A stretch of 64,000 bases of DNA from the NCBI RefSeq assembly GCF_041248615.1, contig NZ_CP158426.1, one strand, 5' to 3'. The position numbers and the translations under genes are program-made. Source of the stretch: Escherichia coli. Lineage in GTDB: Bacteria; Pseudomonadota; Gammaproteobacteria; Enterobacterales; Enterobacteriaceae. Positions 45,204 through 45,264 of this stretch are shown piece after piece. Below the pieces are notes generated by a model. The model saw only the letters and a list, made by a program, of their open reading frames with translations. It ran no database searches and was not told the DNA's origin. How positions within the stretch are numbered: position 1 is the first letter of the stretch; the number at the start of each line of letters is the position of its first letter.

Positions 45204-45264
45204 CCCGAGAGGGCTGGGGTGAGGCTTTTCCCTCACCCAAACCCTCTCCGTGAGGAGAGGGTAG
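45204..45264. repeat. GC-rich double-hairpin element between mtlA and mtlD
   Basis: Two adjacent inverted repeats: ggggtgagg/cctcaccc and accctctcc/gagagggt. Confidence 0.5.

Follow-up and report, generated by a model that had tools for sequence, protein, structure and literature searches.

The window analysed here, a 64-kb stretch of Escherichia coli DNA, carries the mannitol operon mtlADR on its minus strand. mtlA (45272..47185, with its TAA stop codon at 45274-45272) encodes the 637-aa mannitol PTS protein EIICBA, which contains the Pfam domains PTS_EIIC, PTS_IIB and PTS_EIIA_2 and aligns to K-12 b3599. It is followed by mtlD (44029..45177), encoding the 382-aa mannitol-1-phosphate 5-dehydrogenase (Pfam Mannitol_dh and Mannitol_dh_C, with named homologues), and by the last gene of the operon, mtlR (43442..44029), encoding the mannitol repressor (Pfam MtlR). 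An earlier reading of this DNA, made from the sequence alone (hereafter the sequence-only reading), had placed mtlA and mtlD on the two sides of an intergenic gap, and both gene calls are confirmed by Pfam and by alignment to annotated K-12.

The mtlA-mtlD intercistronic spacer (45178..45271, minus strand) is 94 nt long, represents a short allele without a BIME, and is 100% identical to the spacer of O157:H7 and other strains. Its mtlD-proximal end is formed by a conserved tail and the mtlD translation initiation region, UAAAAACAUUGAUGAAGGUUAAUACU (45178..45203, minus strand; 83% mean identity to E. coli across 47 species), in which the Shine-Dalgarno sequence GAAGG (45190-45186) stands 8 nt before the AUG (45177-45175). 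The short allele has no in-frame stop, so gene callers can extend mtlD to 443 aa, an over-extension to which this allele is prone in genome annotation.

Two adjacent perfect inverted repeats lie in this spacer, at 45241-45262 and 45217-45238. Hairpin 1, the one nearer to mtlA, has a perfect 9-bp stem and a 4-nt loop (ACCCTCTCC at 45241-45249 and GGAGAGGGT at 45254-45262), and reads ACCCUCUCC-UCAC-GGAGAGGGU in the mRNA, which is transcribed from the minus strand. Hairpin 2 has a perfect 8-bp stem and a 6-nt loop (GGGTGAGG at 45217-45224 and CCTCACCC at 45231-45238; mRNA, minus strand, GGGUGAGG-GAAAAG-CCUCACCC). Both repeats had been noticed in the sequence-only reading, where 8 of the 9 bases given for the 'ggggtgagg' arm in fact pair. 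That reading also had the hairpins fill the 94-bp gap, which is right in a loose sense; they span 46 of the 94 bases, or 56 when a third arm is counted that its description did not contain. This third arm, CCCUCUC in the mRNA (GAGAGGG on the plus strand, 45207..45213; minus-strand feature), can pair with the GAGAGGG of the hairpin 1 3' arm (45242-45248). Together with hairpin 2 it gives an alternative 18-bp hairpin at 45207-45248 that is 89% complementary. The 18-bp hairpin and hairpin 1 are mutually exclusive, as the third arm takes up the 3' arm of hairpin 1.

Neither hairpin pattern recurs in the 64-kb window, and neither appears in any of 100 dinucleotide shuffles. The RNA of the 94-nt spacer is predicted to fold at -40.2 kcal/mol, against -25.5 ± 3.0 kcal/mol for shuffled sequences (z = -4.84; 0 of 200 shuffles were as stable), and we observed a z of -3.4 for the opposite strand. 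A stable structure is thus predicted for the spacer.

The sequence-only reading further proposed that the double hairpin resembles intergenic repeat elements, which is correct, and a profile match assigns it to the BoxC/PIT/TMECO family rather than to REP. Papers on the family include those of Bachellier et al. (1999) and Hoyne et al. (2000). BoxC, the PIT elements of Hoyne and Maher, and the TMECO motif of Holder et al. (2015, PMC4666352) constitute one family. The strict TMECO pattern is 5'-CCCTCNCCC N3-6 GGGNGAGGG N3 GGGNGAGGG-3', in which loop 2 is TTA in type A and CCG in type B. Inverted A+B pairs are frequent, 23 TMECOs are listed for K-12 MG1655, and Holder et al. described the partial deletion of palindromic A+B pairs, with stable stem-loops left behind (PMC4666352). 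The consensus of 22 K-12 BoxC copies (PMC2267715 supplement) is TTTTCCCCTCACCC-TAA-CCCTCTCCCC-AAA-GGGGCGAGGGG.

Using an HMM built from these 22 published K-12 BoxC sequences (PMC2267715) and searched with nhmmer, we obtained one significant match in the 64-kb window, at 45226-45261 in the mtl spacer (E = 1.5e-5, about 21-22 bits, model positions 2-40 of 51). In the published orientation, the BoxC element (45226..45262, plus strand) reads TTTTCCCTCACCC-AAA-CCCTCTCC-GTGA-GGAGAGGG; its reverse complement, on the mRNA-sense strand, is a degenerate type-A TMECO, of which hairpin 1 is the Watson-Crick hairpin. Next to it lies a truncated type-B BoxC copy in inverted orientation, CCTCACCC-CAG-CCCTCTC-GGG-TAAAAAC (45197..45224, minus strand), which has lost its own hairpin and gives a weak partial inverted HMM match at 45224-45207 (model positions 7-24, E = 1.1). 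When the mtl core was aligned to the K-12 A+B pair between hrpB and mrcB (TMECO 2+1, reverse strand), both halves were collinear throughout, in the block order hairpin 1, TTA, GGGTGAGGG, loop, CCCTCACCC, CGG, CCCTCTC. Compared with the hrpB-mrcB pair, the mtl B half is short of about 11 nt (CCACAGGGAGA) of the last hairpin, before the common GGG-A-rich tail. Hairpin 2 arises from pairing between the 'third-strand' block of the A copy and that of the B copy, which stand head-to-head.

The window and K-12 mtl copies fail the strict TMECO pattern because their blocks are only 8 nt long (CCCTCTCC / GGAGAGGG); their loop 2 is TTT. Under a relaxed pattern with 7-nt blocks, the mtl copy passes and is the sole match in the 64-kb window, and of 81 species loci, 24 have the strict pattern itself at the orthologous site, on the mRNA-sense strand. 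The same HMM scores orthologous spacers of other genera at up to 45 bits (E = 5e-12), and the best of these scores equal those of dispersed BoxC copies elsewhere in the sampled loci. The mtl copy appears in neither published K-12 list (23 TMECOs, 22 BoxCs), the nearest listed TMECOs lying at 3,781,028-3,781,156. It is thus a member of a known family that is missing from both lists examined.

Whether further copies exist elsewhere in the genome depends on the level at which the question is put. At the level of the family they do: the type-A BoxC consensus is found in 5425 of 5426 E. coli genomes, with a median of 19 places in each (15 in an O157:H7 strain). Copies of the whole 67-nt element are another matter, as BLAST (megablast and blastn) against the 5426 E. 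coli genomes returned the mtl locus only. An Rfam 15 scan of positions 43000-48000 at E <= 1 gave no match, and the REP consensus (GCCGGATGCGGCG... / GCCTGATGCG...) was sought in the 94-bp spacer and not found. From these comparisons we conclude that the double hairpin is very probably the remnant of a head-to-head BoxC pair, made up of a degenerate type-A copy and a truncated, inverted type-B copy.

REP sequences were reportedly described in the mtlA-mtlD spacer by Davis et al. in 1988. Within E. coli, the spacer is variable. The core is present in 5404 of 5426 complete E. coli genomes, where it occurs in spacers of 94, 229, about 319, 419 and about 520 bp. The K-12 form (229-bp spacer) accounts for 3487 complete genomes, and the short 94-bp form seen in the window is a minority allele (about 836 of 5404); alleles longer by about 225, 325 or 426 bp were also seen among the entries sampled. 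The K-12 spacer contains the same core plus 135 bp after the mtlA stop, comprising an extra CCCTCTCC 'hairpin 0' and a BIME of two REPs, so that the K-12 REPs fall entirely inside the 135 bp that the window allele is without. Across K-12 and most strains, 135-426 extra bases of REP/BIME sequence lie upstream of the core, and in strain SCU-101 the spacer reaches 419 bp and contains about six REPs. The 5' arm of hairpin 1 in the window is chimeric, with a flank like that of K-12 hairpin 0 and a loop and 3' arm like those of K-12 hairpin 1. As E. albertii also carries the long arrangement, the short allele is best read as a deletion, in which recombination between the two CCCTCTCC repeats would have removed the 135-bp block of hairpin 0 and BIME.

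To place the element in a wider context, we compared 80 species loci anchored on MtlD; the best 120 MtlD homologues listed were all from Enterobacteriaceae, and the spacers of Serratia, Yersinia and Vibrio lay outside the sample. The conserved module has the form CCCTCTCCC-loop-GGGAGAGGG-TTA-GGGTGAGGG-loop-CCTCACCC-CAG-CCCTCTC-GGGTAAAAACATTGATGAAGGTTAATACT-ATG. A strict regular expression found the core in 61 of the 80 loci, and variants in about 5 more bring this to about 66, that is, all sampled loci except those of the Pantoea/Mixta type and one Cedecea sp. The genera with the core include Salmonella (two subspecies loci, L012 and L020), Citrobacter, Klebsiella, Enterobacter, Kosakonia, Cedecea, Buttiauxella, Siccibacter and Mangrovibacter, and it is present in K. 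pneumoniae and Cronobacter too. The two arm blocks average 92% and 95% identity to E. coli and the tail averages 83%, compared with 53% at four-fold degenerate sites of mtlD. The loops vary in sequence and length (5-20 nt in hairpin 2) and the stems are kept.

The position of the core is conserved as well. It lies directly upstream of the mtlD ribosome site at a nearly constant distance from the ATG, and all inserts, which include single REPs, BIMEs, an ERIC-like 127-bp element and extra BoxCs, are found upstream of hairpin 1. The same truncated junction, CCCTCTC-GGG-TAAAAAC, occurs in all genera. One truncated junction and a fixed distance to mtlD throughout point to a single ancestral event and disfavour repeated insertion. 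The GAGAGGG hairpin common to the mtl copies pairs perfectly; in most of the dispersed E. coli copies the sequence is GCGAGGG, with a mismatch. No strict TMECO copies were found in Salmonella (PMC4666352), and retention of the core in a genus reported to have none argues against homogenisation by dispersed copies. Dispersed BoxC copies are not stable: the K-12 A+B pair between lldD and trmL is absent from the window, and only a subset of the Enterobacter and Pluralibacter loci have BoxC pairs downstream of mtlR. In Pantoea/Mixta (Erwiniaceae) the BoxC module is missing and a spacer of equal length holds an unrelated composite GC palindrome, predicted to fold at -43 kcal/mol (z = -5), for which a two-hairpin and a single-hairpin form are likewise both possible. 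On balance, this distribution favours a core that derives from one insertion predating the diversification of the Enterobacteriaceae and that has since been under purifying selection.

Candidate features of the spacer that did not hold up include a GUG-initiated small ORF of 11 codons running through hairpin 2 in E. coli, which we rejected because the length of the hairpin 2 loop differs between genera by non-multiples of three. An effect of the type described for a REP close to a stop codon was likewise rejected: hairpin 1 starts 9 nt past the mtlA stop here, but across species this interval can be as short as 3 nt or as long as 145 nt and is thus not conserved.

To assess the predicted pairings, we aligned the core from 48 species. 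The long hairpin is paired in 93% of the cells of this alignment, with 6 pairs altered on both sides, and the RNAalifold consensus structure is the long hairpin. None of 500 shuffles reaches the observed covariation score, a control that related sequences without structure can also exceed. Hairpin 2 shows a compensatory change to GGGAAAGGG/CCCTTTCCC in Franconibacter and Cronobacter and another to GGGTGAAAGG/CCTTTCACCC in one further locus (L049), and the facing spacer triplets of the long hairpin covary (TTC/GAA in K. oxytoca, CCA/TGG in Siccibacter colletis, and CTA/CAG). The stems of hairpin 1 and of the third arm are almost invariant and so provide no covariation evidence; their invariance could reflect sequence-specific recognition instead of pairing. 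In 37 of the 48 species, no more than 3 kcal/mol separates the two-hairpin state from the long-hairpin state. We observed no strand asymmetry, either as an excess of G-U pairs or in fold stability, between sense and antisense (mean difference -0.2 kcal/mol; sense favoured in 22 of 48 species). As the folds of the two strands are equally stable, sequence alone cannot tell mRNA from DNA as the selected structure.

Conservation at one spot throughout the sampled Enterobacteriaceae suggests that the element probably does something in the mRNA of the operon, and we think it likely that its structure is under selection. The role in differential mRNA stability raised in the sequence-only reading is plausible, given the conservation at the orthologous site, the compensatory changes and the Pantoea palindrome. 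We propose that a captured BoxC pair has been kept as a stable intercistronic RNA structure that influences how stable, or how strongly expressed, mtlA and mtlD are relative to each other, a reading to which we assign a probability of roughly 60%. A BoxC pair would have entered the mtlA-mtlD spacer before the radiation of the Enterobacteriaceae and been retained next to the mtlD ribosome-binding site, with more mobile repeats (REP/BIME, ERIC-like elements and extra BoxCs) turning over between the core and the mtlA stop. In the polycistronic mtlADR transcript, the element is predicted to adopt either two hairpins or one 18-bp hairpin, which are nearly isoenergetic, with a folding energy of about -36 to -40 kcal/mol. 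This structure would not terminate transcription and would instead act as an intercistronic structural block.

How such a block might work can be stated more tentatively, and the specific mechanism of a stability barrier in the mtlADR mRNA is a possibility that we rate below even odds. Following an endonucleolytic cut in the A/U-rich tail, the structure may shield the upstream mtlA segment from 3'-exonucleases; alternatively or additionally, it may act as a cap at the 5' side of mtlD-mtlR. Each of these effects would determine how much transporter there is relative to dehydrogenase and repressor. Our search of the literature on mtlA or mtlD together with REP, stem-loops, RNase III or processing found nothing on this spacer, and returned no expression, RNA-end or decay data for it.

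The most serious competing explanation is that the element is a functionless relic of a selfish or neutral repeat, conserved through a low mutation rate, through gene conversion by BoxC copies, or by repeated insertion. BoxC/TMECO elements have no demonstrated function and no bias to particular genes or distances, the mtl stems look like those of dispersed copies, and extra BoxC copies are found in the same spacer of Cedecea and some Enterobacter (L052, L058, L064), all of which would be expected of such a relic. However, the arm blocks are 92-95% identical against 53% at neutral sites, and gene conversion fits poorly with a core that persists in Salmonella and with GAGAGGG hairpins that differ from the GCGAGGG of most E. 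coli dispersed copies. Repeated insertion would have to produce an identical truncated architecture at a fixed distance from the mtlD ATG in all genera, and the compensatory changes of hairpin 2 also speak against a relic. We therefore consider this explanation unlikely, and prefer selection on an intercistronic structure.

A second possibility is that the element is a conserved RNA switch or protein-binding site that controls translation of mtlD, and with it mtlR, through conformations shifted by a factor such as CsrA. The small energy difference between conformations would suit a switch, although near-equal energies are automatic for a dimer of palindromic repeats. All three CCCTCTC/GAGAGGG arms are conserved even though any one structure uses two of them, and the core always adjoins the mtlD initiation region. 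Motifs resembling ANGGA lie at the loop edges of hairpin 1 (ACGGA) and hairpin 2 (AGGGA), but the GGA motifs are mostly within stems, and other genera have not kept the ANGGA form (GGGAGAGGG). According to Sowa et al. (2017, PMC5389547), mtlD is among the genes with reduced protein and transcript in a csrA mutant, and a single sentence reports that CsrA raised expression of an mtlD 5'UTR-GFP reporter; for class III genes, the same account reports no direct CsrA binding. The element also matches no Rfam family. It is thus rather improbable that an early-captured BoxC dimer serves as a bistable cis-regulatory RNA that tunes mtlD and mtlR against the transporter, possibly via CsrA or another RNA-binding protein. 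If true, this would be the first function assigned to any BoxC/PIT/TMECO member.

The structure could also act in the DNA, as an intrastrand triplex or other non-B form that promotes rearrangement or impedes polymerases, with no role in RNA. The mRNA-sense (non-template) strand has the C-rich / G-rich / G-rich order of a purine-type TMECO, and by block order alone, with 8-nt blocks, a purine-type triplex is possible on this strand. The equal stability of sense and antisense folds is compatible with a DNA-level structure. The E. coli spacer is strikingly polymorphic (94 to about 520 bp), and the resemblance of the window allele to a deletion between CCCTCTCC repeats fits the instability seen near TMECOs; such instability nevertheless leaves unexplained why the core is conserved in 5404 of 5426 E. 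coli genomes and family-wide. With blocks of only 8 nt, the E. coli copy does not fit the strict pattern, and in vivo DMS footprinting of a canonical copy showed no triplex. Moreover, the change of one block to GGGAAAGGG in Cronobacter and Franconibacter is compensated in its Watson-Crick partner. By what we take to be the standard triad rules of the purine motif, GGGAAAGGG as a third-strand block gives a mismatched triad. As this change keeps hairpin 2 and spoils the triplex triad, it argues that the hairpin, and not a triplex, is the selected structure, and we regard a purely DNA-level role as very improbable.

Finally, the element is not a terminator, and there is next to no chance that it works as a partial intrinsic terminator or attenuator through which mtlD-mtlR would be transcribed less than mtlA: GC-rich hairpins do lie within the operon and BIMEs elsewhere have been tied to attenuation (work cited in PMC2267715), but no U-run follows either hairpin on either strand (hairpin 1 is followed by UUUGGG), promoter and terminator consensus scans of 45178-45271 on both strands and of the Pantoea analogue found nothing, and earlier tests of PIT elements, as summarised in PMC4666352, detected neither promoter nor terminator activity.

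The preferred reading, a captured BoxC pair retained as an intercistronic RNA structure, concerns a known repeat family in a well-studied operon, and only the deep conservation of the element at a site inside the operon is out of the ordinary. To our knowledge, BoxC/PIT/TMECO elements have been known since the 1990s and have been assigned no function. The mtl copy, being operon-internal and deeply conserved, is a natural test case for the co-option of BoxC repeats, and the E. coli spacer alleles (94 to about 520 bp) provide natural variants for a comparison of MtlA:MtlD expression. Studies of the family have found no effect on gene expression and have tied the elements to genomic instability (PMC4666352). 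This reported instability is the opposite of the behaviour observed at the mtl locus.

Among known systems, the mtl element can be compared with the REP/BIME stabilisers found between cistrons, as at malE-malF (work of Higgins, Newbury and others, as cited in PMC2267715 and PMC9023263). Like these, it is a GC-rich stem-loop derived from a repeat and located downstream of a transporter gene, and a true BIME lies just upstream in the same spacer of K-12 and most E. coli. The block proposed for mtl would work in the manner of these stabilisers, uncoupling the fate of the mtlA segment from that of mtlD-mtlR. Unlike these, the window spacer has no REP consensus, and REP content varies between strains whereas the BoxC core is constant. 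Another parallel is offered by miniature repeats that are co-transcribed within operons, namely the Neisseria NEMIS/Correia elements (RNase III) and the Yersinia ERIC elements (RNase E), both as cited in PMC2267715. The long mtl hairpin, at 18-19 bp, could similarly be a ribonuclease substrate; the mtl family is unrelated to these repeats, however, its hairpin is below the typical length of an RNase III substrate, and processing at mtl is hypothetical.

The closest relatives remain the BoxC/PIT/TMECO elements themselves. The mtl element shares their intergenic location, their GC-rich composition and their block structure, CCCTCNCC(C) - loop - (G)GGNGAGGG - 3 nt - GGGTGAGGG, along with the second loops of type A (TTA/TTT) and type B (CAG, close to CCG) and a head-to-head arrangement like that of five K-12 pairs. 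It differs in that the E. coli copy is degenerate, with 8-nt blocks and a B half without a hairpin, and in that it is internal to an operon and adjoins a ribosome-binding site. Above all, variation from strain to strain and absence from Salmonella are reported for the family, whereas the mtl copy is kept at one orthologous site across the sampled Enterobacteriaceae.

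In E. coli the mtlA-mtlD spacer varies by strain as a REP/BIME length series: 94, 229, about 319, 419 and about 520 bp. The steps of about 100 bp would fit REP pairs being gained or lost. The REP/BIME block is located upstream of the degenerate BoxC pair that directly precedes the mtlD ribosome site (the mtl core), at 2696-2830 in the K-12 locus L001, at 7-345 in the SCU-101 locus L002 (each in its own coordinates), and in spacer matches H104-H113 from complete E. coli genomes. Judged by eye only, the centre of the K-12 BIME is IHF-like (AATTTGTTGAATTT). As the short 94-bp allele contains no in-frame stop upstream of mtlD (window 44029-45360, minus strand), its mtlD open reading frame reaches 443 aa, crossing the hairpins and entering the last part of mtlA. 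MtlD is annotated at 443 aa in at least one public record (P0002, E. coli B354), which is probably an artefact of start-site annotation.

We observed an insert of ~127 bp about 130 nt upstream of the mtl core in the spacers of L008, L010, L047 and L084, carried by Citrobacter werkmanii, C. youngae, an Enterobacteriaceae strain and a record labelled Salmonella Wilhelmsburg. This insert contains GTGAATCCCCAGGAGC...GTGACTGGGGTGAGCG, a candidate ERIC/IRU core.

The Pantoea and Mixta spacers (67-99 nt; L066, L068-L069, L071-L072, L074-L078, L080-L082) hold a different GC-rich composite palindrome, GGGGCGGGC-AAG-CCCGTCCC ... GGGGCGGA-TTTG-CCCGCCC, that folds at -43 kcal/mol and shows compensatory G/C swaps in L078. 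L066 and L072, both labelled Enterobacter, carry this Pantoea-type spacer, and those two labels may be wrong. One locus, L079 (uncultured Cedecea sp.), lacks both the BoxC module and the Pantoea-type palindrome; its 62-nt spacer contains a single hairpin, CCCTCCCTGTGACACAGGGAGGG.

Downstream of mtlR, some genomes of Enterobacter, Pluralibacter and Phytobacter have full inverted pairs of BoxC type-A and type-B copies (about 7160-7340 in L024, L025 and L027; about 7620-7860 in L017 and L021; about 9870-10150 in L051). Since other genomes lack them, the BoxC family is active or variable outside Escherichia.

On the far side of mtlR in the window, roughly 5.5 kb between mtlR and lldD that is absent from K-12 is explained by a 1439-aa open reading frame between lldP and the mtl side (36968-41287, minus strand). 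Its ESPR, YadA_head, YadA_stalk and YadA_anchor domains identify it as a trimeric autotransporter adhesin, presumably the EhaG/UpaG locus.

The lldD-trmL spacer also differs between the two strains. In K-12 it is 197 bp long (L083 319-515) and holds an A+B pair of BoxC/TMECO copies, which Holder et al. (PMC4666352) number 17 and 18, whereas the window spacer (33005-33051) is only ~47 bp and contains no BoxC. This difference exemplifies the strain-to-strain instability reported for BoxC/TMECO, and the variable lldD-trmL pair contrasts with the mtl copy.
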